A stretch of DNA of 64,000 nucleotides from Candidatus Magasanikiibacteriota bacterium (GCA_003510435.1 DOMK01000010.1:41487-105486); one strand, 5' to 3'; counted from the first letter of the stretch, positions 15,144-33,596 are shown. The notes: generated by a model from the sequence alone, not told the origin. Translations and numbers: made by a program.

Positions 15144-15176
15144 ATTAAGGAATAAGGAGTAAGGAATAAAGAATAA

Positions 15177-15201
15177 AAAAGAACACTGGCGTGTTCTTTT
15201 T
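15177..15201. terminator. bidirectional rho-independent terminator
   Basis: AAGAACAC-tggc-GTGTTCTT hairpin flanked by A-run/T-run between convergent genes. Confidence 0.7.
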
Positions 15202-15225: not shown

Positions 15226-15993
15226 TTATTTTATTTTTTCTTGATACGCTTGCCAACCAGCTTCGCGATATTTTTTAGCTTCGGTCAAAGGATTTTCGGC
15301 TTCATAAATTCCTCTGCCAACGATAATTACATCAGAATTATTTTTTTTGATAACTTTTTCAGGGGTATTGTATTGTTGTCCTAGGGTATCACCACCTTGA
15401 GCTAATTGTACACCTGGTGTCATGTTTACAAAACATGGGTTATCTAATAATTTTTTCATGGTGATAAAACCAATCACAAAATCCTTATTTTCTTCGGCCA
15501 TTTTTAGTGTTTCCTCAGTATACGTACCTTTGGCTAACGTACCTTTGGAACTCATTTCTGCCAAGAGTAATAAGCCTCGGCCTTTGGGTAAACCAATTTC
15601 TTTTAATCCTTGAATAATCCCAGGCCCTGGCACAGTGTGGGCATTGGTAATATGAGACCAATCAGCAATATTATAAATACCATTTTGATATTGATACTTT
15701 ACGGTGTTACCAATATCGGCAAATTTTCTATCTTCAAAAATTAAGAAATTATGTTCTTCTGCTAGTCTTTGTAATTGGATAATTAAATCAGCATCAAAAT
15801 CTTCGATAATATCAATATGGGTTTTTAATACGCAAATTTCTGGACCAAGTTCTTCTGCAATTTTTAATAATTTTTCTTTGGTGACTACATCCGCAGCAAT
15901 GGCCAAATTTGTTTGTTTGGTCTCCATTATTTTAAAAAGCTTTTTGGCGGTGGGATTGGTGCAAAGGTCAGCGCGTTGTTGGTATGTGAACAT
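15226..15993 (-). CDS. pyrF: orotidine 5'-phosphate decarboxylase
   Basis: KTHID and [12 protein letters not shown] motifs. Confidence 0.8.
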
Positions 15994-16003
15994 AATATTT
16001 TGT

Positions 16004-16130
16004 TAATCCCGACCCCGATTCGCATCGGGGAGGGATCCCTTTTAGTGTTTCTAACAAGGGTATTAAAAATACATTTGTTAGTGTGTTGAAAAGGGATTCC
16101 TCGTCGCCCTTTGGGCTCACTCGGAATGAC
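16004..16130. repeat. palindromic repeat family B (ATTCCGAG..GAGGAATCCCTTTT .. AAAAGGGATCCCTC..GGTTCGGGATTA)
   Basis: ~130 nt long imperfect palindrome; full copies at 30265-30392, 31887-32016, 39701-39847; half copies at 7411-7470, 26812-26900, 5832-5873, 51353-51400. Confidence 0.7.
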
Positions 16131-16135
16131 AAGAA

Positions 16136-16768
16136 TTAAACTTGCTTAGATTCAAGAAATTTTTTTCCGTGACCAATTTTGGTATTTATTGGTACATTGT
16201 TTTTGCAGAGAGGACACTCTTCAGCTGAATAATTGGGAATTGTCATTTCTGCTAGTGAAGAGAATGGAACGCCGTACATCTCTGTGTTTATGGTTTGTGG
16301 ATTTTTATTAACCATCACACTAGCCTGAACCACTTCGCCACCTGCTTCTTTTATGGCGTCGACTAATTTTTTTAATGATGACCCTGTTTGTGTAAGATCC
16401 TCAAGTGCCAAGACCTTTTTACCTCTTACGAGATTGTTGTAGTTGCGTCTGGTAAAAAAGGTCAATTTATCATCTTCTTTTTCAGCATAGACACCGAGAA
16501 TTTCTTTGCCTTTGATTTGAGAAAGATGGTAAGCTGTCCATTGAGATAATATTATACCACCCAAAGCCGGGCCAGCTACTACATCAATATCTAAATCTTT
16601 GTATTTCTCTGCAAAAAGTTTACAAACGGCCGATGTCTCTTCAGTGTGGGGGTAGAGAGCATCTTTGTTTACATAAGTATCAAAATGGCCACCAGAAGTT
16701 CCGACAAAATGATCATTATCCAACACAGCTCCAACTTTTTTTAAAATTTCCAAGATATTATTTTCCAT
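16136..16768 (-). CDS. pyrE: orotate phosphoribosyltransferase (type I PRTase) with C-terminal CxxC
   Basis: PRPP-binding motif VLALEDLTQTGSS; position in pyr cluster. Confidence 0.7.
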   Translation of the reverse strand: MENNILEILKKVGAVLDNDHFVGTSGGHFDTYVNKDALYPHTEETSAVCKLFAEKYKDLDIDVVAGPALGGIILSQWTAYHLSQIKGKEILGVYAEKEDDKLTFFTRRNYNNLVRGKKVLALEDLTQTGSSLKKLVDAIKEAGGEVVQASVMVNKNPQTINTEMYGVPFSSLAEMTIPNYSAEECPLCKNNVPINTKIGHGKKFLESKQV

Positions 16769-16819
16769 ATATTTTAAATTAAAAATTAATTATTTTTTTG
16801 AAGGGATTCTCCATTGCGT

Positions 16820-17602
16820 TCAGAATGATACGACAGCACCAGACTTATCTCTGTGATATTTTCCAAATTCAAAAATTTTATTAGCTAATTCACGATTAAC
16901 GACTGGTCCTTCTTTACACATACAAATTCCTAGGTCATCTACTACGCATTGGCCACAAATACCCACACCACATTTCATATAGCGTTCAATACTAACTTCG
17001 CAATCAACATTATATTCATTGCAAATATCTAAAACTTTTTTTTGCATTAGTTCTGGACCACAGGTTACCACTAATTTTTGACACGAATCTGCACTAATAA
17101 TACTTGGTATAAGGTCTGTGACATAACCTTTGTGTCCACGACTGCCATCATCAGTAGCAAGATGTAGAATTAGATTTGGTATTTTTGATAATTTTTCTTC
17201 AAATAATAAATTGTCTTTGGTACGACCGCCAGCGAGGAAATCTATTTTTGCACCGTTTGTCCTTTGAGCCAGTAGACTAAGAGGGGCGGCTCCATAACCA
17301 CCAGCGACCATAATGTAGTGTAAATTTTGGTCAACGGTAAAAGCTGTACCATAAGGTCCAGAAATACCCACGCGGTCGCCAATATTCATTTCAAATAATT
17401 TATTGGTTAATGGACCACGTTTGAAAATTGTTAAACCAAATGTTTGTCCATCGTCAGAAGAAATGGAAAATGGTTTTTGATCAATTCCAGGAATCCAGAG
17501 CATGACGAATTGACCAGGTTTACTTCCCAAATTGAAATTAAAGTAAAAGGTTTTTACAAAAGGATTTTCTTGTTCAATTTTTGAGATTTTTAGAAAGTTC
17601 AT
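16820..17602 (-). CDS. pyrK: dihydroorotate dehydrogenase electron-transfer subunit
   Basis: FAD/NAD-binding fold, C-terminal Cys cluster CGVGICGQC. Confidence 0.8.
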   Translation of the reverse strand: MNFLKISKIEQENPFVKTFYFNFNLGSKPGQFVMLWIPGIDQKPFSISSDDGQTFGLTIFKRGPLTNKLFEMNIGDRVGISGPYGTAFTVDQNLHYIMVAGGYGAAPLSLLAQRTNGAKIDFLAGGRTKDNLLFEEKLSKIPNLILHLATDDGSRGHKGYVTDLIPSIISADSCQKLVVTCGPELMQKKVLDICNEYNVDCEVSIERYMKCGVGICGQCVVDDLGICMCKEGPVVNRELANKIFEFGKYHRDKSGAVVSF

Positions 17603-17719
17603 AAAATTATATACAAATATACGAATTTACGAATTATACGGATGCTATACAAATGTGTATTGCCGAAGTATGTTCGTATAGCATTTGTATAATTCGTATT
17701 GTTAGTATATTCGTATATT

Positions 17720-18628
17720 TTATAAATGAGCAGATCCTCTAATTTCATCTAAATTTTTGATTCCTTCTTCTTTCATAATCACTTCCATTTCATCAGTAAT
17801 TTTTTTGAAAGCGTCAGCACCACGGAAATAGACAGCTGAACCAACACCGAGTAGGGTAGCACCGGCCATAATCATCGCGAGAGCATCTTCGCCAGTCGTG
17901 ATTCCTCCTGTGCCGATAATCGGAATTTTAACTGACTTGTAAATATCATAAACGCATTTAAGGGCAATGGGAAATAAAGCTGGACCAGAGACACCGCCTT
18001 GTTTATTATGAAGAATTGGCCGGCGCGCACGGACATCAATCATCATACCACTAACAGTGTTTACAGCCGTAATAGCATCGGCTCCGCTAGCTTCGGCTGC
18101 CTTGGCAATGGTATCAATATTCCAAGCATTGGGTGAAAGTTTTATAGAAATTGGTACGGTAGATTTCTCTTTTACCGCTTTGGTAATTTTTTCTACCGCT
18201 GAAATGGAATAAGCAAAGGGATCGCCGAATTCTTTACTAACATTGGGACAAGAAATATCAATTTCCAAAAAATCAATTGGCGCTTCACAAATCCGCTCGG
18301 CCATTTCGCCGAATTCTTCTGGTGTACCAGCAAAAATGCTCCCTAAAAGAGGAACATCAGATAATTCTTTAAATTTCTTTAATTCTTCAATGGCTTTATC
18401 AATTCCAGGATTAGATAGTCCGACAGCATTGATAAAAAAATGTTCATAGCCATTCATAGTTGGATTGGGGTGGCCAGTACGCGGTTCTTTGGAAATTGAT
18501 TTGACAGTCACGCCACCACAGCCATTTTTTATAGCATTATTAAGACTGGCACCAGTGACACCGAGAATGCCAGAGGCGACGACAATGGGGTTGGTGAATG
18601 ATTTGCCTAAAAAATTAGTTGTTAACAT
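17720..18628 (-). CDS. pyrD: dihydroorotate dehydrogenase catalytic subunit (class 1B)
   Basis: TIM-barrel DHOD motifs; adjacent to pyrK. Confidence 0.85.
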   Translation of the reverse strand: MLTTNFLGKSFTNPIVVASGILGVTGASLNNAIKNGCGGVTVKSISKEPRTGHPNPTMNGYEHFFINAVGLSNPGIDKAIEELKKFKELSDVPLLGSIFAGTPEEFGEMAERICEAPIDFLEIDISCPNVSKEFGDPFAYSISAVEKITKAVKEKSTVPISIKLSPNAWNIDTIAKAAEASGADAITAVNTVSGMMIDVRARRPILHNKQGGVSGPALFPIALKCVYDIYKSVKIPIIGTGGITTGEDALAMIMAGATLLGVGSAVYFRGADAFKKITDEMEVIMKEEGIKNLDEIRGSAHL

Positions 18629-18740
18629 AATTCCTAATTCACCTAATTTCTAATTCACCTAATAAAATTTCTAATACCCAATTAGTAATTTGATATTGGG
18701 ATTTTTATTAGAAATTAGGTGAATTAGATAATTAGAAATT
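18629..18740. repeat. palindromic repeat family C (CTAATTCACCTAATTTCTAAT) directly 5' of pyrD
   Basis: Inverted copies of TAATTCACCTAATTTCTAAT around an AT-rich centre; second copy at 30878-30986, directly 5' of folA. Confidence 0.65.
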
Positions 18741-18742
18741 TA

Positions 18743-19696
18743 TTATATTTTATTTTCCAGTTCTAATAGCCAAATAATAATCGCTTTTTGAATATGCATT
18801 CTATTTTCTGCTTGATCAAAGATTACAGAATTTTTGTGATCAATGGCTTCACGAGAAATTTCATAACCAATATGACAAGGCATGCAGTGCATAATACCAG
18901 CTTTTGGAGAATAGGTATCAACCAATTCAGCACTCAATTGAAATGGTTTGAAAGTAGCTAAGCGACGATCATATTCAGCCTGGTATTCTGGAATAACTTT
19001 ACCATCTTTGAAAAATTCCATATCAATCCAAGTGTCAGTGTGGACATAATCTGTGTTAGTCATAGCCTCGGCCAAATCAGTCGTGCGTTTTATAAGGCCT
19101 GTGGCATTAGCCAGGTCATTTAATTCTGTATCAACACTTGGTGGATTGGCTTCGGGAGCAGCGATAGCGACTTCAATTCCAAGTTTAGCACAAGCTAATT
19201 GCAAAGTATTGGAAACGTTATTTTCAATTCCTAACCAGGTAACTTTTTTAATATTTTCTAAACCATTAGAATGTTCCATCATAGTCAAGATGTCACCTAG
19301 AGCTTGGCAAGGATGATATTTTTCTGAGCAAGCATCAATTACTGGAATTTTATTTAAGCTAGCAGCAGTCATGACGTCTTCAGCTTTTAAGGCGCGGAAC
19401 ATAAGGACAGCTCCATAACGCATGACGGCTTGAATTTCATCTTTGAAAGCAGTGAGAGCAAATTGTGTATTGCGTGCGTCTAGATATATTCCGTGTCCAC
19501 CCAGTTCTGTCATGCCAGCTTCAAAAGATAGACGAGTACGAGTAGAAGTTTTTTGAAAAAGCATTATTAAAGTTTGATTGTGTAACACATCCACGCTTTC
19601 TCCGGCTTTTCTTTTGGCTTTTAATTTTTGAGCAATATTTAAAATGTCTAACAAATCCTGTTTGGATTGTTCTTTGAGTGAGATGAGGTGACGCAT
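18743..19696 (-). CDS. argF: ornithine (or putrescine) carbamoyltransferase
   Basis: STRTRLSFE carbamoyl-phosphate motif; HCMPC (HCLP-type) rather than the HPLP of ATCase. Confidence 0.75.
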   Translation of the reverse strand: MRHLISLKEQSKQDLLDILNIAQKLKAKRKAGESVDVLHNQTLIMLFQKTSTRTRLSFEAGMTELGGHGIYLDARNTQFALTAFKDEIQAVMRYGAVLMFRALKAEDVMTAASLNKIPVIDACSEKYHPCQALGDILTMMEHSNGLENIKKVTWLGIENNVSNTLQLACAKLGIEVAIAAPEANPPSVDTELNDLANATGLIKRTTDLAEAMTNTDYVHTDTWIDMEFFKDGKVIPEYQAEYDRRLATFKPFQLSAELVDTYSPKAGIMHCMPCHIGYEISREAIDHKNSVIFDQAENRMHIQKAIIIWLLELENKI

Positions 19697-19730
19697 AGGT
19701 TTTGATTTAAAGATTTAATAGATTTAAAAA

Positions 19731-20615
19731 TTAATTTGTCACTACCATTGTTGTTTGTCTTTGTTTAATTTCAGATATTATCATGGCTATAAAAATTAGC
19801 AGGCCACCAATCAAAGTGTGTGAGGTTATTTGTTCATTTAAATATAGATAAGCTACTAAAACTGCAAATAGTGGTTCAAAAGAAAAAATAATAGCGGTTT
19901 TGAGCTCGGTAATATAGCGTTGCATATAGGCTTGAGTAGTATACATATAAGCACTGGCAAAAATTGCACAAAATAAAATAGCTTTCCAAACATTCCAATC
20001 TCCAGAAATTGTTATTCTGTAGTTTGTTATTAGCCCTACTATACCGGTAATTATTCCTACAGTAAATAATTGTGTTATGACAAATAAAGAGGCATTGATG
20101 TTTTTAACTAATTTAGTTATCAAAATTAAATGGGTTGCTAAAGCAAAAGTTGCTAATAATACCCAGACATCACCAATGTTTATGGAAAATTTATTTTTTA
20201 AAGTTAATAAAGCCAAACCTCCTAATGCTAATACTATGGCTATAATCTGGTTTACTTTTGGTAATTTTTTATTGATTACAGAAATAATAATTGGAACTAA
20301 AATTACTACTAAGCCAGTAATAAAACCAGCGTTAGAAGCAGTAGTATATTTTATTCCAGTAGTCTGCAATATAAATCCAGCAGAGAGGATTGTGCCAAGT
20401 AAAATTCCTTTCCACAAAATTTCTTTTGTATATAATTTAAATTTATTTGCAAAGATGATAGCCAACAGAATTGAAGCAATAATAAATCTGATTGAGAGAA
20501 AAGAATAAACGTCAACAATACCCACCGCTTGTTTGGTAAATGAAAAAGTGGCACCCCAAAATAACACGCCCAAGAGTATCATCCAAGTTGCTAGTTTTGA
20601 CTTTTCTATCGTCAT
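19731..20615 (-). CDS. EamA/DMT family transporter
   Basis: ~10 TM helices in two EamA-like repeats; start at MTIEKS gives an ATGA overlap with pyrC. Confidence 0.6.
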   Translation of the reverse strand: MTIEKSKLATWMILLGVLFWGATFSFTKQAVGIVDVYSFLSIRFIIASILLAIIFANKFKLYTKEILWKGILLGTILSAGFILQTTGIKYTTASNAGFITGLVVILVPIIISVINKKLPKVNQIIAIVLALGGLALLTLKNKFSINIGDVWVLLATFALATHLILITKLVKNINASLFVITQLFTVGIITGIVGLITNYRITISGDWNVWKAILFCAIFASAYMYTTQAYMQRYITELKTAIIFSFEPLFAVLVAYLYLNEQITSHTLIGGLLIFIAMIISEIKQRQTTMVVTN

Positions 20616-21796
20616 AAAATAATTACTCTTTGATTTAAAATAGTGGCGATGGGCCAGCCGCGGAGTGATAATCCAACAAATGGACTCCAACCGCATTTAG
20701 TTTTTAAATTTTCATTGGTTACTTCTTTTTCTAGATCCAGATCAATTATAACCAAGTCGTTTGTCTCAGGAATGTTAAAGATTTTTTGGATGTTGAAATG
20801 CGTTAATTCAGTAATTTTTTCTAAGGTAATTTTACCGTTTTTAAACTCATTTAGCAAGAGGGGTAAAGTAGTTTCTAATCCTGGTACGCCTGATGGGGAA
20901 TTGGGATATGGCTTAGCTTTTTCTTCTAGGGTATGTGGGGCATGGTCTGTTCCAATAGTATCAATTGTACCGTCTAAAATGGCTTGCCAGAGGGCTTTTT
21001 GATCGTTTTTGGTACGAAGGGGCGGATTCATCTGCCCCAGGGTCCCTAGGTGATTATAATCATCTTCTGATAGAAATAAATGGTGAGGGGTGACTTCAGC
21101 ATAGATCTTAATACTCTCTAATTTGGCTTGTTTAATCAATTCAATTTCTTCTTTAGTACTGACATGACAGATATAGAGTTTGGTGTTGTATTTTTGAGCA
21201 AGTTTGATGGCTTGAGAAACGGCTGTAATAGCAGCATCTCGTGAGCGTATTTTCGAATGATCTTTTACATTGTTACATTGTCCCATTGTTACATTGTTGT
21301 TTTTAATGACAGCTTCGCTCTCTGCATGTACTGCCACAATCAAATTTAACTCTGCACAGGTTTTAAAAATATTTTCTTGATCTTCAATTTTATCAACTAA
21401 TAAATCACCAGTACTGGCACCCATGAAAAGTTTTACACCAATAATTTCGTTTTTACATTTGGCAAATTCAGTATAATTATTTGGCGTTGCTCCAAGATAT
21501 AAATAATAATTCAAAGGAATATTTATTTCGTCCAATTGTTTATCAATTATTTTTTTCTTGTGCTCAAGTGCTAAGGTGCTTATAGTGCTTGGTGAGTTAT
21601 TAGGCATGTCAAATACTGTAGTGTAACCACCTGCCATGGCAGCTTGCGCACCAGTCTGCCAATTTTCTTTGTGTTCAGATCCTGGAGTACGAAAGTGAAC
21701 GTGAGGATCAATTAAGGCTGGTAATGCTAAGAGATTGCCTTTGATTTCGGGTAAGTCTAATTCAAGAGTCTGATTGTTCCAGGTTTTGATTAACAT
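20612..21796 (-). CDS. pyrC: dihydroorotase
   Basis: DPHVHFR metal-binding motif, amidohydrolase fold. Confidence 0.8.
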   Translation of the reverse strand: MLIKTWNNQTLELDLPEIKGNLLALPALIDPHVHFRTPGSEHKENWQTGAQAAMAGGYTTVFDMPNNSPSTISTLALEHKKKIIDKQLDEINIPLNYYLYLGATPNNYTEFAKCKNEIIGVKLFMGASTGDLLVDKIEDQENIFKTCAELNLIVAVHAESEAVIKNNNVTMGQCNNVKDHSKIRSRDAAITAVSQAIKLAQKYNTKLYICHVSTKEEIELIKQAKLESIKIYAEVTPHHLFLSEDDYNHLGTLGQMNPPLRTKNDQKALWQAILDGTIDTIGTDHAPHTLEEKAKPYPNSPSGVPGLETTLPLLLNEFKNGKITLEKITELTHFNIQKIFNIPETNDLVIIDLDLEKEVTNENLKTKCGWSPFVGLSLRGWPIATILNQRVIIL

Positions 21797-21869
21797 TTTT
21801 CACATATCACGTATCACATATCACGTATCACAGTTGTTATGTGTTACGTGTTTTATGTTACGTGAAAAA
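21797..21869. repeat. palindromic repeat family D (ATCACGTATCACAT) directly 5' of pyrC
   Basis: TCACGTATCACATATCACGTATCAC // GTGTTACGTGTTTTATGTTACGTGA; related copy at 55606-55690, directly 5' of prfA. Confidence 0.6.
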
Positions 21870-22814
21870 TTAATTTGTAATTCGCGTTCCTGATTTACCT
21901 TCTAGTGCACTAGCAAGTTTATTCGGTGAAGTAATGATGGCTTCTTTCCCACCGTTTTCTAAAAAATTAATTACCGCCTGAATTTTTGGTAACATAGAAC
22001 CTTTGGCAAAATGATTTTGTTCAATGTACTTTTTTAATTCCTGAATATTTATTTTTTCTAATTTTTTCTGATCTGGTTTGCCAAAATTTATATAAACATT
22101 ATCCACGGCGGTGGCAATGACAAGAGTGTCGGCTTTTATTTGATTGGCAAGAAGGGCAGAAGCAAAATCTTTATCAATTACTGCTTCGACACCTTTTAAT
22201 TTTCCTCTTTCCTCTACAACTGGAATACCACCGCCACCGCAAGCAATAACAATGGTATTATTTTTTATTAATTCTTGCACAATATCTTTTTCAATTACAT
22301 CAATTGGTTTGGGAGAAGCCACAACTCGACGCCAGCCTCGACCAGCGTCTTCTTCTACTGCCCAGCCATATTTTTTGTACAAAGTTTTGGCTTGAGCTTT
22401 GGTATAAAAAGAGCCAATCGGTTTGGTTGGGTTGTTAAAAGCAGGATCATTTTTGTCCACCAAAACCTGGGTGACAACAGTCACGGCTTTTTTGTTCAAT
22501 TTTTTCTTGGTAATAATATTATCCAAGCTTTGTTGAAGATAAAAACCAATTGCACCTTGAGTTTCTGCATCAGCCGTGTCCAAAGGCACACGATGTAATT
22601 TTAATTGATTAAAACCCAATTCAGATCTTTGCATAATAAAACCAACCTGTGGTCCGTTGCCATGGGTAATAACAATTTCTAAATTTTTGCTGAATAGTGG
22701 AAGCAAAGCTTCGCAAGTTTTTTTTACTTGGAAATATTGGTCTTTTTCGGTTTGGTGTTCTTTATCTTTGATAAGAGCATTACCACCAACAGCGATGACG
22801 ATTCTTTTTGACAT
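21870..22814 (-). CDS. arcC: carbamate kinase
   Basis: N-terminal IVIAVGGNAL, amino-acid kinase fold, ~314 aa. Confidence 0.8.
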   Translation of the reverse strand: MSKRIVIAVGGNALIKDKEHQTEKDQYFQVKKTCEALLPLFSKNLEIVITHGNGPQVGFIMQRSELGFNQLKLHRVPLDTADAETQGAIGFYLQQSLDNIITKKKLNKKAVTVVTQVLVDKNDPAFNNPTKPIGSFYTKAQAKTLYKKYGWAVEEDAGRGWRRVVASPKPIDVIEKDIVQELIKNNTIVIACGGGGIPVVEERGKLKGVEAVIDKDFASALLANQIKADTLVIATAVDNVYINFGKPDQKKLEKINIQELKKYIEQNHFAKGSMLPKIQAVINFLENGGKEAIITSPNKLASALEGKSGTRITN

Positions 22815-22816
22815 AA

Positions 22817-23299
22817 TTAGTTATGTTTGTATTCTTTTATTTCTGTTTGATGAAAAGTTTTTTCACAATAATGGCATCTTAGTTTTATTTCTTCTTTGGA
22901 TTTTATGGTAAGAAATTTACTACTCATGGTTTCGTTATTAGTTATGCATTTTGGATTGGGGCAGACAACGACATATTCAATAATGTCTGGTAAAGTGACA
23001 TGAAATTTTTTGACCACTTCATAATTTTTGATAATATTAATTGTACCATCTGGCGCCAAAATTGCAATCCGATTAATTTGTTCCGGAGTTAGTTCCAAGT
23101 CTTCAACTTTTATTAAATCTTTGAACTTCATAGCCTTGCTGGGTAAGTTCAAACCAACAGTGACGAGCTTGTTGTGATCTGCTAAATTGAGCAAACGGAT
23201 AATTTTCAAGGCATGGCCAGCGGTAATGTGGTCAATGACTGTGCCGTCTTTGATGGCGGTGACCAGGAGCTGTTTGGAATTTTCAGTTTTTTGTGGCAT
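22817..23299 (-). CDS. pyrI: aspartate carbamoyltransferase regulatory subunit
   Basis: C-terminal zinc domain CPNPKC..CHYC. Confidence 0.85.
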   Translation of the reverse strand: MPQKTENSKQLLVTAIKDGTVIDHITAGHALKIIRLLNLADHNKLVTVGLNLPSKAMKFKDLIKVEDLELTPEQINRIAILAPDGTINIIKNYEVVKKFHVTLPDIIEYVVVCPNPKCITNNETMSSKFLTIKSKEEIKLRCHYCEKTFHQTEIKEYKHN

Positions 23300-23395
23300 A
23301 TAAAATAGGTTATTTATTTAAAGTAATTTTATTCGACCGATAACCCGTTTTTGTAATTGTTGTAGGTGTATGGTTATTGGCGTCAGGAGTCAGGA

Positions 23396-24316
23396 TTAAA
23401 GTTTTCCCAATACTAATCCAAGTAACGCTTGTCTCACATACAAACCATTTTCCGCTTGTTCAAAATAATAGGCATGTTTGGTCGCATCAACATCAGTCGT
23501 GATTTCATTGACGCGTGGCAAGGGATGCATGATGCGTAAATTTGGTTTGGCTTTGTCGAGCATTTTGGCTTTGAGAATAAAAACATTTTTTACCCGTTCA
23601 TATTCCATCGGGTCGGCAAATCTTTCACCTTGAATTCTGGTCATGTACAAAATATCTACTTTGTTAACTACTTCTTCTATTTTTTTGTGTAATGAAAATT
23701 TAACTTTTTTGGCTTTTAATTCATCACAAATATATTCTGGCATTTGTAAATTATCTGGAGCCACAAAATATAATTTAGCATTGAAATGAACTAGAGCTTG
23801 AGCTAGAGAATGAGTAGTCCGACCATATTTCAAATCGCCAACTAAGGCAATTTCCAAACCTTCAAGTTTTTTCTGACATTCTTGGATAGTAAATAAATCT
23901 AATAGAGTTTGCGTTGGATGTTGGTTGGCACCATCACCGCCATTTAAAATTGGTTTGTCGGTCGCTTCACTAGCGCGTCTAGCTGCACCCTCAATCGGAT
24001 GACGCATGGCAACTACATCTACATATTGGCCAATGATTTTAATGGCATCGTAAAGGGTTTCACCTTTTTTGGCCGAAGTGACGCCAGGATCTGCAAAGCC
24101 AACGACTTTTCCACCCAAGCGATTCATAGCGGTTTCAAAAGATAAGCGAGTTCTAGTAGATGGTTCAAAAAAACAACTGCCCATGACTTTGTTTTCCAAT
24201 AATTTTGGTTGAGGTTTTTGTTTTAGTTCGCGCGCGATTTTTAAAATATGCAACATTTCTGGTTTGGTTAACTCAGAAATGGAGATGATGTCCCTACCTT
24301 TGAAGTTTAATGCCAT
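23396..24316 (-). CDS. pyrB: aspartate carbamoyltransferase catalytic subunit
   Basis: STRTRLSFE and HPLPR motifs. Confidence 0.9.
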
Positions 24317-24515
24317 ATAACATTGATTACACTGATTTAATACTTGCCTGAGGGCAAGGATTTCACAGATTGTGATTGAATAAATTTTTTTAATATAATT
24401 CTGTTTTAATCCGTTTGTATCTGTTTAATCTGCTGTTTCTAATTCGTTTGGTTGTAATTGTTTACAGCAGATTGAACAGATTATAACAAATTATAATGGA
24501 GCAAAATAAATTAAT

Positions 24516-25439
24516 TTAAGTATAAATTTCATTAGTTAGACAGTGATATGAACCACCAGCAAAACGGAAATAGGTCAGGGGGGCAGAATAGCGTTTTATT
24601 TTCAAAGCTTTTAGTTTATTTTCTACACCAGGAGTAGAAAATTTACCACAGTTCATCATTAGTCCTGGGGCAGTAAAGGTATTTACCGTGTAATTACCTA
24701 GGATATTGCCATGACCCGACGAGTCCATAGAGTTTACATAGATTATTGTACCACCTAGCTTTTTTAAAGCCAAGAGGCTATTTTTACTAATCATATTTTT
24801 GGCCACTATAAAGGCTGTTAGATTATTATTTTTATCCACCACAGGGCTAAAAACCGTATCGAGGTGATAGCCATTAGATTTTATTAGACAATAATGATCA
24901 GGTTTTATAATGCTTCTAACAAAGTCATGACCTTTCTTATTTGATCTAGATAAACCGCCAAAATAATATGTACCATAATTAGTTTCTAAGAAAAAAGCTT
25001 CGCCAAATTCTATATACGCGTCTTTGGGTGGAGTAATGATTTGTTTTTTGAATTTTTTGGCAATAATCGGTGCCCAGACATCAGCTTCTGGTTGTCTGAC
25101 CCGTGCGCTAAAACTGGCTTTGATCCAATAATTCTTGTACATCATACCAACATCGCGAATAAAAATTCCATCATGGTGTAGGCTGTCAATTTGGTTAAGT
25201 TCATTTGGAAAAGGTAATAAATGAATTTTTAAACCAGCGGTTTTAAAATTAGAAATAAATTTGTTATATTCACGTCGCATTACTTTTTGATCAGGAATAA
25301 CATGATGATTATGGGCGTAGACAGTAGCGTAATTTAGACTGTTCTTCGTACGGCCTTTGTGGACAGGGTAGCCACTGTACCAAGCGCCAGTTATTTCTCC
25401 ATGAGCTTTTGGCAGATCAACTAGGATGATTTCGTTCAT
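24516..25439 (-). CDS. amidinotransferase-superfamily enzyme (agmatine/arginine deiminase or DDAH-like)
   Basis: C-terminal GGSYHCLTNE catalytic-Cys signature of guanidino-group modifying enzymes; sits beside carbamate kinase and OTC genes. Confidence 0.5.
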   Translation of the reverse strand: MNEIILVDLPKAHGEITGAWYSGYPVHKGRTKNSLNYATVYAHNHHVIPDQKVMRREYNKFISNFKTAGLKIHLLPFPNELNQIDSLHHDGIFIRDVGMMYKNYWIKASFSARVRQPEADVWAPIIAKKFKKQIITPPKDAYIEFGEAFFLETNYGTYYFGGLSRSNKKGHDFVRSIIKPDHYCLIKSNGYHLDTVFSPVVDKNNNLTAFIVAKNMISKNSLLALKKLGGTIIYVNSMDSSGHGNILGNYTVNTFTAPGLMMNCGKFSTPGVENKLKALKIKRYSAPLTYFRFAGGSYHCLTNEIYT

Positions 25440-25755
25440 AGTTTGTTGAAAGTAAATTTAAATTAAAAGTAAAAATATTTTCTGTTTATTTCTGTTCAAT
25501 TCCGTTTTCTCTGTTGTTAATTTTACAACAGAATAAACAGAACTAACGGAATAAAACAGAGGCTATCTTTAAAAAATAAATCACTACCTAATGGTAGTGA
25601 TAAAATTAATAATGAATTGAGAAACAAATGCCCCTGATTTTAGTTTGAACAAATCGTGGTTTGGGATAGGGGATTGGTGTTTCATATTGGCAATATTTTA
25701 TCATTTCTCGGTTATTTTTGCAAGAATCGGGGTTGGGGATATTTTTAAAGCTGGT

Positions 25756-26895: not shown

Positions 26896-28518
26896 TTAAG
26901 AAAGTTTTTCTCTCAACAATTCTTCCGCCACTTTTGGATCAGCACTACCCTCAGAAGCTTTCATGACCATACCTTTGAGAAACTGTAAAACTGGTTCTTT
27001 GCCAGCTTTGTATTGGGCAACTTGCGCTGGATAGCTTTTGATAATCTCGTCAATAATTTCACCAAGTTTTCCCGTGTCACTCACTTGACCCCAGCCTTTT
27101 TCTTCCATAATATGAGTTGGGTCTTTATCCACATCAGAGCCAGCCATAATTAATAATATTTTATTAGCATTGGTAGAATTGACGCGGTCGTTGTAAATCA
27201 GAGCAATCAGTTCGGCAAAGTTTTCGGCACTAAATTTGACCTCGGAAATATCCAGATTTTTTTCTTTCAAGATTCCCATGAGTTTACTCGTAATCCAACC
27301 ACCAGCCAAACGAGCGACTTTTTGGGGAATATTTTCCGCTTTGTTTTTGCTCTCTGGCACAGAGTCTAGCCACTCAGTCAATTCGCTCATAACTTCTTCG
27401 GTAAATGTTGCCCAAGCTTTATCTTCACTTAGTAATTTGGCATCGTTATAAGAAAAATTATATTCTGCAAAAAATCTTTGCCGTTTACTCTGAGGTAATT
27501 CTGGTAAATGAATGGCACCAGCGATTTTCAAAGGATGAAATGGAGGAATATCGGGATCTGGAAAATAACGATAATCAGCGGCGTTTTCTTTTATCCGTTG
27601 TAAAACAGTTTCTTGTTTATTCTCATCCCAACCACGAGTTTGCTGAGGCCAGGGTTCATTTTTTTCTAATAATTCTGTCTGCCGTTTGATTTCAAATTCA
27701 ATGGCTTTTTCTACGGCTTTGAAAGAGTTAATATTTTTTACTTCCACTTTATTATTTAGTTTATAATCTCCCAGTGGTTTGACCACACCATCTACAATTT
27801 CAAATTTACCCGCTTCTTGCACTGATACATTGGCTTCACAGCGCATGTGGCCTTTTTCCATATCCGCATCACTCACTTCTAGAGCGCGCATAATACTACG
27901 CAATTCCTGACAATAAGTTTTGGCTTCTAAAGCAGATTTGAAATCTGGATCTGTCACAATTTCCACCAGGGGTGTACCACCACGATTAAAATCTACAAGG
28001 GTGTTTCCACCATTCTGAGGAGCCGTAGGTGACGAAGAATCTCGTTGTTTTTTGTGCGAACTAAGGGATCCTTCGACTCCCTCTGGTCGCTCAGGATTGG
28101 TGTCATGTAATAACTTAGCAGTGTCTTCTTCCAAATGGGCGCGAGTAATACCAATTTTGGCTTCGTCGCGAATATTATCTCCCAAAGGGAAAGTTAAAGT
28201 TAGACTGCCATGCTCGGCAATTGGTTCATCATATTGAGAAATCTGATAACCCTTTGGTAAATCTGGATAAAAGTAATGTTTGCGATCAAATTTGGAATAT
28301 TCGCGAATCGTACAACCAAGAGCTTTGCCAATTAAAACTGTCCAGACAATGGCTTTCTTGTTTGGTACTGGCAGAGTGCCAGGGTGGGCGAGGCAGATAG
28401 GACAGATATTAGTGTTTGGTTCAGCCAAATCAGGATCGTTTTTACACGAACAAAACATTTTGGACTTGGTTTTTAGTTCTACATGGACTTCCATGCCGAT
28501 TATTGGTGTATATTGCAT
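26896..28518 (-). CDS. gatB: Asp/Glu-tRNA amidotransferase subunit B
   Basis: N-terminal MEVHVELKTKSKMFCSC; GatB/YqeY C-terminal domain. Confidence 0.9.
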   Translation of the reverse strand: MQYTPIIGMEVHVELKTKSKMFCSCKNDPDLAEPNTNICPICLAHPGTLPVPNKKAIVWTVLIGKALGCTIREYSKFDRKHYFYPDLPKGYQISQYDEPIAEHGSLTLTFPLGDNIRDEAKIGITRAHLEEDTAKLLHDTNPERPEGVEGSLSSHKKQRDSSSPTAPQNGGNTLVDFNRGGTPLVEIVTDPDFKSALEAKTYCQELRSIMRALEVSDADMEKGHMRCEANVSVQEAGKFEIVDGVVKPLGDYKLNNKVEVKNINSFKAVEKAIEFEIKRQTELLEKNEPWPQQTRGWDENKQETVLQRIKENAADYRYFPDPDIPPFHPLKIAGAIHLPELPQSKRQRFFAEYNFSYNDAKLLSEDKAWATFTEEVMSELTEWLDSVPESKNKAENIPQKVARLAGGWITSKLMGILKEKNLDISEVKFSAENFAELIALIYNDRVNSTNANKILLIMAGSDVDKDPTHIMEEKGWGQVSDTGKLGEIIDEIIKSYPAQVAQYKAGKEPVLQFLKGMVMKASEGSADPKVAEELLREKLS

Positions 28519-29578: not shown

Positions 29579-30259
29579 TTAGGTGGTTAGGTGTTGCTTC
29601 ACTTCACTCCAAATTATATCATGAATAGTATTTGGGGGCAATATTTTATCCTCTTTTATACATTCAATAAGTTTGAATTCATGATAGAGATTGGCAATTT
29701 GCAAATAAGCTTTTTCCGCGTCTTTCAAATGATTAATATCATCTTCGTGAATGTCACGTTTTTTTCCATGCAAATATTCACGATCGCCTTTTTTATCTAC
29801 CAATTGCTGGGAAATTTCTGGCGTGACATGTAAAATAAGATTTACATCTGGCTTAGGAATGCCAAGAATATTATATTCTAGATTATAATTCCAATCATAA
29901 TATTTTTTTCTCTCTTCATCGTCAGTAATTTTTCCACCTTGGTGGCCCATGTTGGAGGCGACATAGCGATTGGCAATCACAATTTTACCTTCATCTAGCC
30001 AAGCACGAATTTTTTTACTAGCCGAAAAACGATCCACGGCATAAAGAATTGAGGCGCGATAAGGTCCGACTTCATGGGCTGAGCCAAAACCGCCGTTTAA
30101 ATATTCTTCTACCAGAGAAGCACTGGGTTCGCCATATTGAGGAAAGCTAATTTGTTCAACTTGTTTACCCTCATTTTTTAAATGCTGAAGCAGAAGTTCG
30201 GTTTGCAAACTTTTTCCCGAGCCGTCTGTGCCTTCGAGCATTATAAATAGTCCTTTCAT
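29579..30259 (-). CDS. tmk: thymidylate kinase
   Basis: P-loop LEGTDGSGKS, DRF-like motif. Confidence 0.85.
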   Translation of the reverse strand: MKGLFIMLEGTDGSGKSLQTELLLQHLKNEGKQVEQISFPQYGEPSASLVEEYLNGGFGSAHEVGPYRASILYAVDRFSASKKIRAWLDEGKIVIANRYVASNMGHQGGKITDDEERKKYYDWNYNLEYNILGIPKPDVNLILHVTPEISQQLVDKKGDREYLHGKKRDIHEDDINHLKDAEKAYLQIANLYHEFKLIECIKEDKILPPNTIHDIIWSEVKQHLTT

Positions 30260-30367: not shown

Positions 30368-30859
30368 TCACCCTGTGGGGTTCGGGATTACGCGAAGATA
30401 TTTAACAAACGTAAACCCTTCGTGTTCTTCTCTCCACACCTCTTGCCAAATTGCTGGGTTGATTTCCGGAAAAAAAGTATCACCATCGACTTCCATATCT
30501 ACATGAGTAATGTACAGAGTATCTACACGGTCAATGGTTTGTTTATAAATACTAGCGCCACCACAGACAAATGCGTCTTCATCTTTTAATTCATTAAAAG
30601 CTTTGTCCAAATCAGTATAGATTCTTACTCCTTCTGGTGCTTTAAAATTTGGATCTTTGGTCAGAACCACGGTTTTTCTACCTGGCAATGGTTTTCCCAA
30701 ATATCCTATGATTGATTCAAATGTAGTTTGTCCCATTAAACAAGTTTTTCCTAGAGTAGTGGTTTTGAAATACTGAAAATCTTCCGGTATATTCCACGGA
30801 ATTTTGTTCTTAATACCTATACAGTTATTTTTAGCAACGGCAGCAATTAAACTAAACAT
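30368..30859 (-). CDS. folA: dihydrofolate reductase
   Basis: N-terminal IAAVAKNNCIGIKNKIPWNIPEDFQYFK. Confidence 0.8.
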   Translation of the reverse strand: MFSLIAAVAKNNCIGIKNKIPWNIPEDFQYFKTTTLGKTCLMGQTTFESIIGYLGKPLPGRKTVVLTKDPNFKAPEGVRIYTDLDKAFNELKDEDAFVCGGASIYKQTIDRVDTLYITHVDMEVDGDTFFPEINPAIWQEVWREEHEGFTFVKYLRVIPNPTG

Positions 30860-31003: not shown

Positions 31004-31888
31004 TTAAATCGCTATTGAGAATTTGATACTAGGGTAACTCTGATAATTAACTAGTTGGGTGTCTCCTGCTTGCCAATCAAAAATTGATTTAAAATTATCA
31101 GTAGCAATTTGAGGTAATGGATAAATGTTCGGATCACGTGTTAGTTGTTCTTTTATTCCTTCCATATGATTAGAATAAATATGAGTATCACCCAAGAAAC
31201 CAACTAAGCGTCCTTCTTTATAACCAGTTTCTTTGCATAGTAAATGTAATAGTAGAGCATAACTAGAAATATTAAAGGGAAGTCCAAGAGCTACATCAAC
31301 AGAGCGTTGATTCCACATCAGGTTTAATTTGTCACCAGTAATCGTAATTTGAAAATTGTAATGACAAGGTGGTAGAGCCATTTCTTGGAGTTTGCTCGGA
31401 TTCCAGGCCATGACGAGCATGCGTCTGTCAGTTGGATTAGTTTTTAAGGTTTCAACTAACTTTTTTAATTGGTCTACACCTTGTCCGATATAATCAGTTT
31501 GGTAATCAATATAATCAGCTCCAAAATGTCGCCATTGAAAACCATAAATTGGCCCTAGGTCGCGTTCTTCAGCCATTTTCTTTTTGGTGTTTTCATCATG
31601 AGCATAAGGAACTTTGAGCGGTGAACACCATTCATCCCAAATATGACAGTTCCGGTCTTTGAGCCATTGCTTATCAGTAATGCCCTTGATAAAGAATTCC
31701 AATTCTGTGGCCATAACTTTGAAAGGCATTTTTTTGGTTGTAAGTAGAGGAAAGCCTTTACTCATGTCGTGTTCAAACATTACTCCTGCCACACTCAAAA
31801 TACCTGTGCCTGTGCGGTCAGCTTTTTCTACGCCGTTTTCTAAGATGTGTTTTATGATGTTGAGGTATGATTGCATAATTCGATTCAT
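31004..31888 (-). CDS. thyA: thymidylate synthase
   Basis: LPPCH active-site motif; 294 aa. Confidence 0.9.
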   Translation of the reverse strand: MNRIMQSYLNIIKHILENGVEKADRTGTGILSVAGVMFEHDMSKGFPLLTTKKMPFKVMATELEFFIKGITDKQWLKDRNCHIWDEWCSPLKVPYAHDENTKKKMAEERDLGPIYGFQWRHFGADYIDYQTDYIGQGVDQLKKLVETLKTNPTDRRMLVMAWNPSKLQEMALPPCHYNFQITITGDKLNLMWNQRSVDVALGLPFNISSYALLLHLLCKETGYKEGRLVGFLGDTHIYSNHMEGIKEQLTRDPNIYPLPQIATDNFKSIFDWQAGDTQLVNYQSYPSIKFSIAI

Positions 31889-32021: not shown

Positions 32022-32453
32022 TTAAAATTCCCCTGTACTTCCATGTTGTCCAGTACCACGAGAGCTAGTATCATCCAACTCTACCACTTCTTCCAATTGA
32101 GCTATGGCCACAGGATAAATAATTAGTTGAGCAATTTTTTGTCCTTTTTTAATAATAGCAGTTTCTTGACTAAGATTTATTAATAATACATTGTATTCGC
32201 CACGAAAACCAGAATCAAACACTCCACCCATAGTGTGTAGACCATATTTCATAGGCGGACCGCCTTTATCTTTTACAATCGCAGCAAATCCTGGTTCAAA
32301 TTCTAAAGCAAATCCCAAAGCAAATAATTTTCTTTCGCCAGATTTAATTTCCGCATCTTCCAGAGAAAACAAATCTAAACCAGCGTCTTCACCTGGATGG
32401 CCATAGACTGGAAGTTTTGCTTCTGGATTTAATTTTTTAAATTTGACTCGCAT
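32022..32453 (-). CDS. dut: dUTP diphosphatase
   Basis: dUTPase motifs (GLDL, GVFDSGFRGE, C-terminal GSTG). Confidence 0.75.
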   Translation of the reverse strand: MRVKFKKLNPEAKLPVYGHPGEDAGLDLFSLEDAEIKSGERKLFALGFALEFEPGFAAIVKDKGGPPMKYGLHTMGGVFDSGFRGEYNVLLINLSQETAIIKKGQKIAQLIIYPVAIAQLEEVVELDDTSSRGTGQHGSTGEF

Positions 32454-32472: not shown

Positions 32473-33033
32473 TCAAACAGATTTGTATTTAGCAACTAAT
32501 CCATCTAATTGTTCATATAAGTCCTCTAAATTGCCATTATTATCAATATGTTCAGTGGCTTCTTTGACAATATCGTTAATTGTTAATTCTGTAGATCGTT
32601 GGTGATCAGCGAGAAATTGTTCAAAAGTTTTGTTATTATCATCGCTTTTTTCTCCGCGTTTAGTCAGTCGCTCATAACGGATTTTTGGATCAGCCGAGAT
32701 TTCTACCAAAACAAAACCAGGCAAATTTTTTAAATATTTCACATCATTAGGACGGCGGACATTGGAAATAGAAATAATTTGGTGGGTATCATTTTTTATA
32801 TCCTCGGCTAGAGTTTTTGACATAATGTCATCACCAAATTTCTCTCGAATTGATTCAGAAACTTTGACATAGTTATCCCGATTTAGTTCCAAATAAAATC
32901 TTTTTAAAATATCGGCTAACATAAAACTAAAGCTGTGGTTTTTACCACCGTATTTTTGTTCTAGGTAAGCCCCAGCCGTGTCTTTACCACTAGCCATTTG
33001 GCCAACGAAACCAAAGATGATTTTCATAAACAC
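32473..33033 (-). CDS. P-loop nucleotide/nucleoside kinase (dNMP kinase-like)
   Basis: Walker A GQMASGKDT; sits inside the thymidylate module. Confidence 0.5.
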   Translation of the reverse strand: MFMKIIFGFVGQMASGKDTAGAYLEQKYGGKNHSFSFMLADILKRFYLELNRDNYVKVSESIREKFGDDIMSKTLAEDIKNDTHQIISISNVRRPNDVKYLKNLPGFVLVEISADPKIRYERLTKRGEKSDDNNKTFEQFLADHQRSTELTINDIVKEATEHIDNNGNLEDLYEQLDGLVAKYKSV

Positions 33034-33077: not shown

Positions 33078-33596
33078 TTAATTTGGATTTTTACTATTGG
33101 TATAGTCTGAAATATATTGTCTATATTTTACACCAGCAGAATCCAAAATTTTACGTGAAGCGATCCAGACTTTGTCGTCATGATATTTATCATTTTCAAA
33201 AATTATTTCTTTTATACCATTTTGGACAATTGCTTTGGCGCATTCATTGCAAGGGAATAGAGTACAATAAATTTTACAGTCATGTGGTTGTTTGCTGGAA
33301 TTATAAATAGCATTTTCTTCAGCATGACAAACATAGGCGTATTTGGTATCCAAAAAATCTCCTTCTCTGTCCCAAGAAAAAGAAGAATCATCTGCACCGC
33401 GAGGAAAACCATTGTAACCTAGTCCAATAACAATATTATTTTTATCAGCGATTACTGCCCCAGCTTGGGTAGAAGGATCTTTTGATCTTTCGGCGATTAC
33501 ATGAGACATACGCATAAAGCATTCATCCCAAGAAATATAGTTTTCACGAGCTTTTTCCATATATTTATAATTGTTAAGTAAGTGGTATTTTAGCAA
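33078..33596 (-). CDS. dCMP deaminase (CMP/dCMP deaminase zinc-binding)
   Basis: HAEENAI and PCNECAKAI motifs. Confidence 0.8.
   Translation of the reverse strand: MLKYHLLNNYKYMEKARENYISWDECFMRMSHVIAERSKDPSTQAGAVIADKNNIVIGLGYNGFPRGADDSSFSWDREGDFLDTKYAYVCHAEENAIYNSSKQPHDCKIYCTLFPCNECAKAIVQNGIKEIIFENDKYHDDKVWIASRKILDSAGVKYRQYISDYTNSKNPN

Follow-up and report, generated by a model that had tools for sequence, protein, structure and literature searches.

Where does a pyrimidine operon without an adjoining carbamoyl-phosphate synthetase (CPSase) obtain its carbamoyl phosphate (CP)? The question is raised by a cluster of de novo pyrimidine (pyr) genes on the minus strand of a 64-kb stretch of a Candidatus Magasanikiibacteriota genome (GCA_003510435.1, DOMK01000010.1:41487-105486; we refer to this whole stretch as the window), in which a carbamate kinase (CK) and a protein of the ornithine carbamoyltransferase (OTC) family (OTC-like, OTCl) are encoded among the pyr genes. 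Candidate Phyla Radiation (CPR) bacteria are thought to scavenge most of their building blocks, and we know of no established CP source where they keep de novo pyrimidine synthesis. An earlier interpretation of this locus (the sequence-only reading) held that CK makes CP for aspartate carbamoyltransferase (ATCase) or, alternatively, that the operon couples pyrimidine synthesis to a deiminase pathway. The idea at its core, that this pyr operon carries its own CP enzymes other than CPSase, is consistent with all that was tested and is partly supported. As the most suitable model we propose, at somewhat less than an even chance, that CP derives from arginine or citrulline through a pentein-fold guanidino-group-modifying enzyme (GME) and OTCl and is used by ATCase, with CK balancing the pool and an EamA-family protein serving as transporter.

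We identified the genes by NCBIfam and Pfam profile searches, with scores in bits compared to curated cutoffs; 55 open reading frames (ORFs) of the window, comprising every ORF of at least 250 aa and most shorter ones, were scanned with Pfam. All eleven genes of the sequence-only reading were found at the coordinates it gave, on the minus strand. The membership of its gene list stands, but the order it gave follows rising coordinate, whereas the order of transcription is GME, pyrB, pyrI, CK, pyrC, EamA, OTCl, pyrD, pyrK, pyrE, pyrF, with the pentein gene first, upstream of pyrB. GME (24516..25439) is a 307-aa protein of no characterised family, recognised by its predicted fold and catalytic residues. 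It is followed by pyrB, the ATCase catalytic chain (23396..24316; TIGR00670, 379 bits, cutoff 237), and pyrI for the regulatory, Zn-domain-containing chain of ATCase (22817..23299; TIGR00240, 185 bits, cutoff 149; PF02748), a gene content that corresponds to the allosteric PyrB6PyrI6 type of ATCase. Next come CK of the arcC type (21870..22814; TIGR00746, 409 bits, cutoff 358), the dihydroorotase gene pyrC (20612..21796; TIGR00857, 334 bits, cutoff 279), the EamA/DMT-family transporter (19731..20615; two copies of PF00892) and OTCl, a carbamoyltransferase of a non-canonical OTC subfamily (18743..19696). The remaining genes are pyrD, the class 1B dihydroorotate dehydrogenase catalytic subunit (17720..18628; NF005574, 331 bits, cutoff 269), pyrK, its electron-transfer subunit (16820..17602; NF000796, 279 bits, cutoff 224), a probable pyrE for orotate phosphoribosyltransferase (16136..16768; phosphoribosyltransferase domain, TIGR01367 at 127 bits, under the cutoff of 150), and pyrF for orotidine monophosphate decarboxylase (15226..15927; TIGR01740, 210 bits, cutoff 92). 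Gene callers amended two starts, placing that of EamA at 20615 (294 aa) and that of pyrF at 15927, its ORF being open back to 15993.

The spacing of these cistrons bears directly on whether CK and OTCl belong to the operon. In order of transcription the gaps are 199 nt (GME-pyrB), 96 nt (pyrB-pyrI), 2 nt (pyrI-CK), 73 nt (CK-pyrC), -4 nt (pyrC-EamA), 34 nt (EamA-OTCl), 114 nt (OTCl-pyrD), 117 nt (pyrD-pyrK), 51 nt (pyrK-pyrE) and 208 nt (pyrE-pyrF), so that CK starts 2 nt past the pyrI stop and 4 nt are shared by the end of pyrC and the start of EamA. Given the 2-nt, -4-nt and 34-nt gaps, CK could not be transcribed apart from pyrI, and OTCl hardly apart from pyrC and EamA. Separate transcription of the CK and OTC genes, which had been named as evidence that would speak against the proposal, is thus answered in the negative. 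Judged by these gaps, translation of CK and OTCl is coupled to that of pyr cistrons, and the two form no unit of their own. Terminator-like sites on the minus strand are located solely before GME and after pyrF. The former is a hairpin with a 9-bp stem and a T-run (25601-25580) that closes a NUDIX unit and is followed by a palindrome of ~100 nt (25571-25470), the two making up a leader element at 25470..25601 on the minus strand; the 261-nt GME leader folds at -63 kcal/mol (z -7.2). The latter is a bidirectional terminator-like hairpin right after pyrF (15176..15201), with an 11-bp stem and T-runs on both strands.

The reported absence of carAB from the window was confirmed by a tblastn search with CPR CarA and CarB over the 64 kb, in which the best E-value was 3.4, and the longest ORF of the window does not exceed 748 aa. 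Neither carA nor carB is among the genes called in the 8 kb beyond the window start, where FtsH, S1, GyrA and RuvA are encoded. The statement on CPSase therefore covers the 64 kb and the called genes of a further 8 kb, together ~72 kb out of roughly 1 Mb of genome. Likewise, no canonical arginine/agmatine deiminase domain (ArcA, PF02274-type, ~410 aa) was found among the 55 ORFs scanned with Pfam, and tblastn searches of the window for argG, argH, aspA, an ornithine-decarboxylase-like gene and the candidate ArcE described below gave no matches. The ArcB-type (OTCl) and ArcC-type (CK) genes lie within one 4-kb stretch on the same strand, and the sole arginine-deiminase candidate in the window is the 307-aa GME.

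Since the substrate of OTCl is central to the proposed route, we compared the protein with characterised transcarbamylases. It scores just below the cutoffs of both OTC profiles (NF001986, 289 bits against 306; TIGR00658, 276.3 against 280.85). In common with canonical OTC (ArgF/ArgI/ArcB) it keeps the CP-binding motifs STRTR, HPxQ (as HPCQ) and the Arg of ENR (as AENR), together with the OTC-type Lys of FxKxSxRT (as FQKTSTRT), the Asn of NNV (as ENNV, equivalent to Asn167) and the Cys of HCxP; its best solved relatives are all OTCs, the P. furiosus enzyme matching at E 1e-56. It differs from canonical OTC in reading HCMP where OTC has HCLP (Leu to Met), in its scores under the cutoffs of the hidden Markov models (HMMs), and in the 240's loop. 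There the DxxxSMG motif, which defines ornithine recognition in OTC (Shi et al. 2015, PMC4581275), is replaced by DTWIDMEFF and a 10-aa insertion, a change that is family-wide: of the 79 OTCl sequences aligned, at least 76 keep DTW[IM][DN]MEFF, whatever the neighbouring genes. A search of 1.84 billion representatives at 50% identity returned the OTCl family as one full-length representative (513 bits), followed by a full-length match at 280 bits; among the representatives, those nearest are further xME-loop proteins, several of them with HDMP, whereas the bulk of those aligned (79 of 123) have SMG and HCLP.

We also considered a putrescine carbamoyltransferase (PTC) and hence an agmatine route, using as criteria a (Y/W)(G/W)(V/L/I) loop, Gln in FxQxSxRT, a C-terminal extension of ~20 residues and the cutoff of TIGR04384. 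This candidate was ruled out by the Lys in place of Gln, the lack of a C-terminal extension and a TIGR04384 score of 213 bits against a cutoff of 500. The question of OTC versus PTC posed by the sequence-only reading is thus settled on one side, OTCl not being a PTC by motifs and HMM score, but the canonical OTC motif is absent as well. OTCl might then not be an ornithine enzyme at all, the (D/N)ME-loop subfamily carbamoylating or phosphorolysing another amine or ureido compound with EamA as its transporter, a view that overlaps the other alternatives discussed below. The replacement of DxxxSMG across the whole family would fit, as would the near-cutoff scores with curated OTC models and the xME-loop HDMP proteins among the nearest representatives, where the Asp is as in diaminopropionate/diaminobutyrate transcarbamylases. 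On the other hand, the conserved Lys, Asn and Cys are those of OTC, the best solved relatives are all OTCs, and the neighbours of the family in other genomes (CK, the candidate ArcE, argG-argH and an Orn/DAP-type decarboxylase) belong to ornithine/citrulline metabolism. We regard a non-ornithine enzyme as highly improbable; because of these neighbours, ornithine/citrulline is most likely the substrate pair of OTCl, as far as gene context can tell.

To place the operon among its relatives, we scanned one genome per species and found OTCl relatives in 212 GTDB species; for the best 80 loci we retrieved the sequence and annotated it with tblastn, ORF clustering and HMMs, with the proviso that the taxon labels of many bins are unreliable (e.g. 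'Gammaproteobacteria' from co-assembly bins). The closest loci by OTCl identity are L011 (JBAQFA010000055, 97%) and L012 (GW2011_GWA2_37_8, 92%). In 31 of the 80 loci OTCl has pyr genes as neighbours, and in 23 of these it is placed directly between pyrC and pyrD, the usual order being pyrB-pyrI-pyrC-OTCl-pyrD-pyrK-pyrE-pyrF. Among the 31 pyr-linked loci, carA-carB stands directly upstream of pyrB in six, CK is present in one (L011), and 24 have neither in the fetched flanks. Only the window and L011, among the 80 loci compared, have both CK and GME inside the cluster; L012 has pyrB-pyrI-pyrC-OTCl without CK, GME or EamA, and EamA is found in the cluster of the window only, being absent from L011. 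By this distribution, CK and GME are gains of the lineage of the window and L011 only.

Outside the pyr context, CK is located up to 2.7 kb upstream of OTCl in 13 other loci without pyr genes. In five of these 13 (L030, L038, L044, L049 and L061) the CK-OTCl pair adjoins a 440-aa P-loop protein (e.g. L044 6860-8182) whose similarities to cobW/HypB and to cyclic 2,3-diphosphoglycerate synthetase (9sxb) are both weak. Since the latter similarity fits the published description of ArcE (2024), this CK-adjacent protein of CPR bins is probably the arginine synthetase ArcE. The CK upstream of OTCl in 13 loci and the candidate ArcE in five of them indicate that the OTCl family, with the same loop motif and 66-97% identity, would be the ArcB of arginine-catabolic clusters. 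In four loci (L022, L060, L071 and L081) argG, in some cases together with argH, clusters with OTCl, and an Orn/DAP-type decarboxylase or an aspartate ammonia-lyase adjoins it in other loci. In L060, argG-argH immediately precede pyrB, and neither carAB nor CK is in view; it is pure speculation that ArgH and ArgG run in reverse there, converting arginine and fumarate into citrulline and aspartate, the sources of both ATCase substrates. In addition, a YgeW-like carbamoyltransferase of ~400 aa, recognised by motifs only, lies directly upstream of CK-OTCl in L055 (1021-2247) and L077 (7816-9021), so that two different transcarbamylases flank one CK in these loci.

The degree of conservation of OTCl is a separate observation. 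The protein is 66-97% identical over many CPR classes and bins labelled Woesearchaeota/Nanoarchaeota, far above the adjacent pyr and gatB genes: in L041 the identities are 71% for OTCl, 60% for pyrB, 47% for pyrC and 42% for gatB, and in L042 they are 72%, 61%, 44% and 42%, respectively. This suggests either very strong constraint or lateral spread.

With respect to CPSase in this group, the CarB of a Magasanik relative (L037 140-3331) has two close homologues (84% and 80%) in 5.8 billion proteins, the next matches being ~70% identical and the few named ones coming from Chlamydiota or Verrucomicrobia. Because close homologues are so few and are followed by matches of ~70%, carAB looks sporadic in the Magasanik group, which suggests lateral acquisition. 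This bears on a further explanation, in which carAB elsewhere in the genome supplies CP, while CK, OTCl and possibly GME constitute an ATP-yielding arginine-catabolic or arginine-salvage module that merely has the CP node and its chromosomal neighbourhood in common with the pyr genes. Such an arrangement would agree with the portion of the genome seen (~72 kb of roughly 1 Mb), the presence of carAB in some relatives, the CK-OTCl pair without pyr genes in the same syntenic slot in L026 (gatB-CK-OTCl), and the arginine deiminase system documented in Saccharibacteria (PMC8764695). It accords poorly with the predicted translational coupling of CK and OTCl to pyr cistrons instead of a unit of their own, with the rarity of CarB near the Magasanik type in the protein database, and with the position of OTCl by pyr genes in 31 species, between pyrC and pyrD in 23. 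We consider mere co-location distinctly unlikely.

The best PDB match of CK is the P. furiosus CK 1e19 (310 bits, E 9e-92, residues 1-312), with an amino-acid-kinase fold, and by this full-length match above the profile cutoff it is classed as an ArcC-type carbamate kinase. It resembles the CK-like carbamoyl-phosphate synthetase (CPS; 'anabolic CK') described for Pyrococcus furiosus and P. abyssi, which has an ordinary CK sequence and fold and was proposed as a CP maker without CPSase (PMC6022934). It differs in that CK is here operon-coupled to pyrI and that the absence of CPSase covers the 64 kb and the called genes in 8 kb. The in vivo role of the anabolic CK is now doubted in Thermococcales (PMC13260591). 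In Thermococcus kodakarensis, which lacks CPS, deletion of arcB (OTC) or arcE leads to pyrimidine auxotrophy and deletion of arcC (CK) has little effect (PMC13260591), by which the archaeal precedent for CK as CP source is weakened.

This precedent underlies the explanation first advanced for the locus, that CK is an anabolic CP synthase using carbamate (NH3 + CO2), replaces carAB, and provides CP to ATCase and likewise to an OTCl working anabolically, from ornithine through citrulline to arginine. Several features speak for it. Six relatives have carA-carB-pyrB-pyrI-pyrC-OTCl without CK, and the window and L011 have CK without carAB, a pattern resembling in-situ non-orthologous displacement; CK lies 2 nt after pyrI and would be co-expressed with ATCase, which is more in keeping with an anabolic function than with an energy-yielding one; the closest solved structure is that of P. 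furiosus CK 1e19, an enzyme that, given 20-50 mM ammonium bicarbonate, rescues CPS-less E. coli (cited in PMC13260591); and argG-argH adjoin OTCl in some CPR genomes. However, the 24 of 31 pyr-linked OTCl loci without CK or carAB nearby indicate that CK is not the general solution, arcC deletion barely affects pyrimidine prototrophy in T. kodakarensis, and CP formation by CK was seen only at very high ammonium and bicarbonate (PMC13260591). Moreover, GME and EamA are left unexplained, and argG/argH were not found in the window by tblastn. We consider this explanation unlikely. Accordingly, the claim that CK makes CP for ATCase stands in that the operon has CP enzymes of its own, but CK as their main source is weakened, CK being present in one other pyr-linked locus only and dispensable in T. 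kodakarensis.

If CP comes from citrulline, an enzyme that forms citrulline from arginine would complete the route, and GME is the candidate. By sequence, GME matches only DDAH_eukar (PF19420; E 4e-4, 20.1 bits against a cutoff of 23) and no NCBIfam family. Its AlphaFold model (pLDDT 93.6), a five-fold beta/alpha propeller of the pentein type, matches the ArgZ/AgrE arginine dihydrolase, DDAH, amidinotransferases (AGAT) and arginine deiminase in Foldseek (E 3e-14, TM 0.72-0.83, probability 1.00). The earlier label 'amidinotransferase-type' thus holds for the pentein guanidino-modifying fold, as the model match indicates. The Cys-His-Asp triad of pentein catalysis is kept in GME, as is a guanidinium-binding Asp. 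Seven residues are invariant in 37 homologues, namely, the catalytic Cys300 (GGSYHCLT), His192 and Asp194 (YHLDT), Asp96 (FIRD), Arg115, Glu118 and Arg165. According to the family profile alignment, Cys300 and His192 align with Cys264 and His168 of ArgZ: GGSxHC300LT of GME corresponds to GGAAKC264LT, YH192LD194T to YHLDT (H168), and FIRD96 to FTAN71, and the conserved Arg residues align with conserved ArgZ residues. GME therefore shares with the ArgZ/AgrE N-domain and DDAH the fold, the catalytic motifs YHLDT and GGxxxCLT, and conserved Arg residues, but it is only 14-17% identical to them, is a stand-alone protein of 307 aa, and has Asp96 where ArgZ has Asn71. Asp at this position is what we take to be the state in arginine deiminase and amidinotransferases. 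GME probably acts on a guanidino amino acid, and it is a candidate arginine-to-citrulline (or arginine-to-ornithine) hydrolase.

The GME family is widespread in CPR and Marinimicrobia; it also occurs in at least one bin of Elusimicrobia and at one or more loci that look archaeal. We looked for a conserved GME neighbourhood in the contexts of six other genomes, and found none with pyr, arc or OTC genes; besides those of Marinimicrobia, the contexts are on two more contigs of CPR type, on a fourth one whose origin is unassigned, and on a contig that looks archaeal. On the last (L093), the GME homologue is located beside Sec61-beta and NAC.

Taken together, GME would turn arginine, or a related guanidino amino acid, into citrulline; OTCl would phosphorolyse citrulline to ornithine and CP; ATCase (PyrB/PyrI) would take CP into the pyrimidine pathway; CK would balance the CP pool, yielding ATP from surplus CP or topping up CP from carbamate; and EamA, coupled to pyrC and OTCl, would move one amino-acid substrate or product. 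We prefer this model because OTCl is conserved by pyr genes, its family occurs in CK/ArcE-type clusters, CK and GME appear to have been gained together, and the genetics of T. kodakarensis point the same way; in adopting it we infer in which direction OTCl and CK work, which substrates GME, OTCl and EamA have, and that carAB is absent genome-wide. The deiminase alternative of the sequence-only reading is thus kept in modified form: GME, CK and OTCl look like a full deiminase-type route, to which we add that its CP can feed ATCase, but no canonical deiminase was found among the 55 ORFs scanned. The system most similar to it is the ArcE-ArcB-ArcC route of T. kodakarensis (PMC13260591, PMC11032458), with which it shares a context that is here putatively CPS-less, a full pyr pathway, OTC and CK, and citrulline-derived CP that can feed ATCase; the likeness to Thermococcales extends to the best solved relatives of OTCl and CK, both Pyrococcus furiosus enzymes. 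The differences are that the genes are here inside the pyr operon, that the host is a CPR bacterium, that OTCl has a non-canonical 240's loop, that no ArcE or ArcA is in view, the arginine-to-citrulline candidate being the 307-aa pentein protein, and that the route is here a prediction from sequence.

Several points weigh against this model. The OTC equilibrium strongly favours citrulline synthesis, and OTCl, whose substrate is assigned from motifs and context, lacks DxxxSMG. Its positions beside argG-argH (four loci) and downstream of carAB (six loci) fit an anabolic, CP-consuming role. The link of GME to the pathway rests on two genomes, the window and L011, and GME may rather be a dihydrolase that takes arginine to ornithine without citrulline, a DDAH or an amidinotransferase. 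The carAB genes may sit in the remainder of the roughly 1-Mb genome, their absence being established for ~72 kb only. Picking the 80 loci for their similarity to OTCl introduces an ascertainment bias, and the strong hairpins between several cistrons mean that a single 10-kb transcript is not assured.

The position of OTCl suggests a further comparison. The pyr operon of Bacillus has the order pyrB-pyrC-pyrAA-pyrAB-pyrK-pyrD-pyrF-pyrE, with the CPSase genes between pyrC and pyrK/pyrD, and OTCl fills this CPSase slot in most CPR relatives, a positional analogy that is only suggestive; the inserted genes here are of the arc type (OTC family, CK), not CPSase subunits. In a wider form of the model, many CPR would make pyrimidines without CPSase through a hitherto unrecognised (D/N)ME-loop branch of OTC that is fixed within their pyr operons and phosphorolyses citrulline, and in the lineage of the window a new family of short pentein enzymes would be the missing arginine deiminase, the ring being built from scavenged arginine; we think this possible, but on balance doubtful. 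Already known are the CK-like CPS (PMC6022934), a catabolic OTC as CP source (PMC13260591) and the arginine deiminase system of Saccharibacteria (PMC8764695). We found no literature tying the pyr operons of CPR or Magasanikbacteria to CK or OTC. What appears to be new is the combination of CP enzymes embedded in a pyr operon with an OTC subfamily of non-canonical type and a pentein candidate. The operon coupling of ATCase to CK and a protein of the OTC family points to a way into pyrimidine synthesis that bypasses CPSase and would draw on arginine or citrulline acquired from a host or the surroundings, in parallel to the Thermococcus genetics, shown only in 2026 (PMC13260591). Two enzyme families are thereby flagged as to their specificity, the (D/N)ME-loop transcarbamylases and the 307-aa pentein family.

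The spacers of the cluster have features of their own. The 199-nt GME-pyrB spacer (24317..24515, minus strand; 24 nt in L011, the closest relative) contains a repeat/palindrome akin to the element upstream of GME (repeats D1, I1 and I8; fold z -5.7). GME is thus flanked by related repeat/palindrome elements (24382-24436 and 25470-25571), with direct copies 74% identical and inverted arms up to 89% complementary, which might represent an operator common to the two or a trace left by the insertion of a cassette. A riboswitch, a PyrR site or a guanidine riboswitch near GME and pyrB was considered and rejected, since no Rfam family reached its gathering score and relaxing the threshold to E<=5 returned spurious miRNA-like hairpins only. 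The longer cluster spacers fold as long near-perfect hairpins (z -3.8 to -8.5). Throughout the window, intergenic spacers (examples are 17603-17719, 18629-18742, 21797-21869, 15986-16135 and 25470-25571) consist of tandem repeats of 7-10 nt followed by inverted copies, each hairpin with its own sequence and mostly without a U-tract after it. Such folding is general to the window, with z < -3 in 25 of 38 spacers compared to one of 43 coding controls, and 40 of 80 tandem-repeat arrays fall in the non-coding 14% of the window.

Within the operon, the pyrE genes of the window (16136-16768) and L011 (10936-12248) are of non-orthologous types at the same operon position, the type in the window differing from that in most relatives, and pyrC is 77% identical to its L011 counterpart while its neighbours are 90-97% identical. 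The different pyrE, the EamA gene in the window only, and the low identity of pyrC point to local recombination or replacement within the operon.

Upstream on the same strand are genes for a dCMP deaminase (33078-33596), a P-loop kinase (32473-33033) and a dUTPase (32022-32453), thyA (31004-31888), a DHFR gene (30368-30859), tmk (29579-30259) and gatB (26896-28518). With the first six of these upstream, the pyr cluster closes an 18-kb stretch mostly devoted to pyrimidine nucleotides. GatB has 540 aa, compared to ~480 positions in its profiles, and the match to its N-terminal catalytic domain is ~50 residues longer than the profile, which corresponds to an insertion. Proteins identical to those of the window occur in groundwater metagenomes (ENA ERZ909580 and SRR2177986; JGI 3300009031), which makes groundwater the setting of this ultra-small bacterium, and homologues carry the names Candidatus Magasanikbacteria or Patescibacteria. 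The GC content is 34-37% along most of the window, but the segment 44625-46187 has 50% GC in a 35% GC genome. An RNA gene was considered for this segment and rejected, as it has no Rfam match and encodes a very hydrophobic multi-pass ORF of 520 aa without a Pfam match; it may be foreign DNA.

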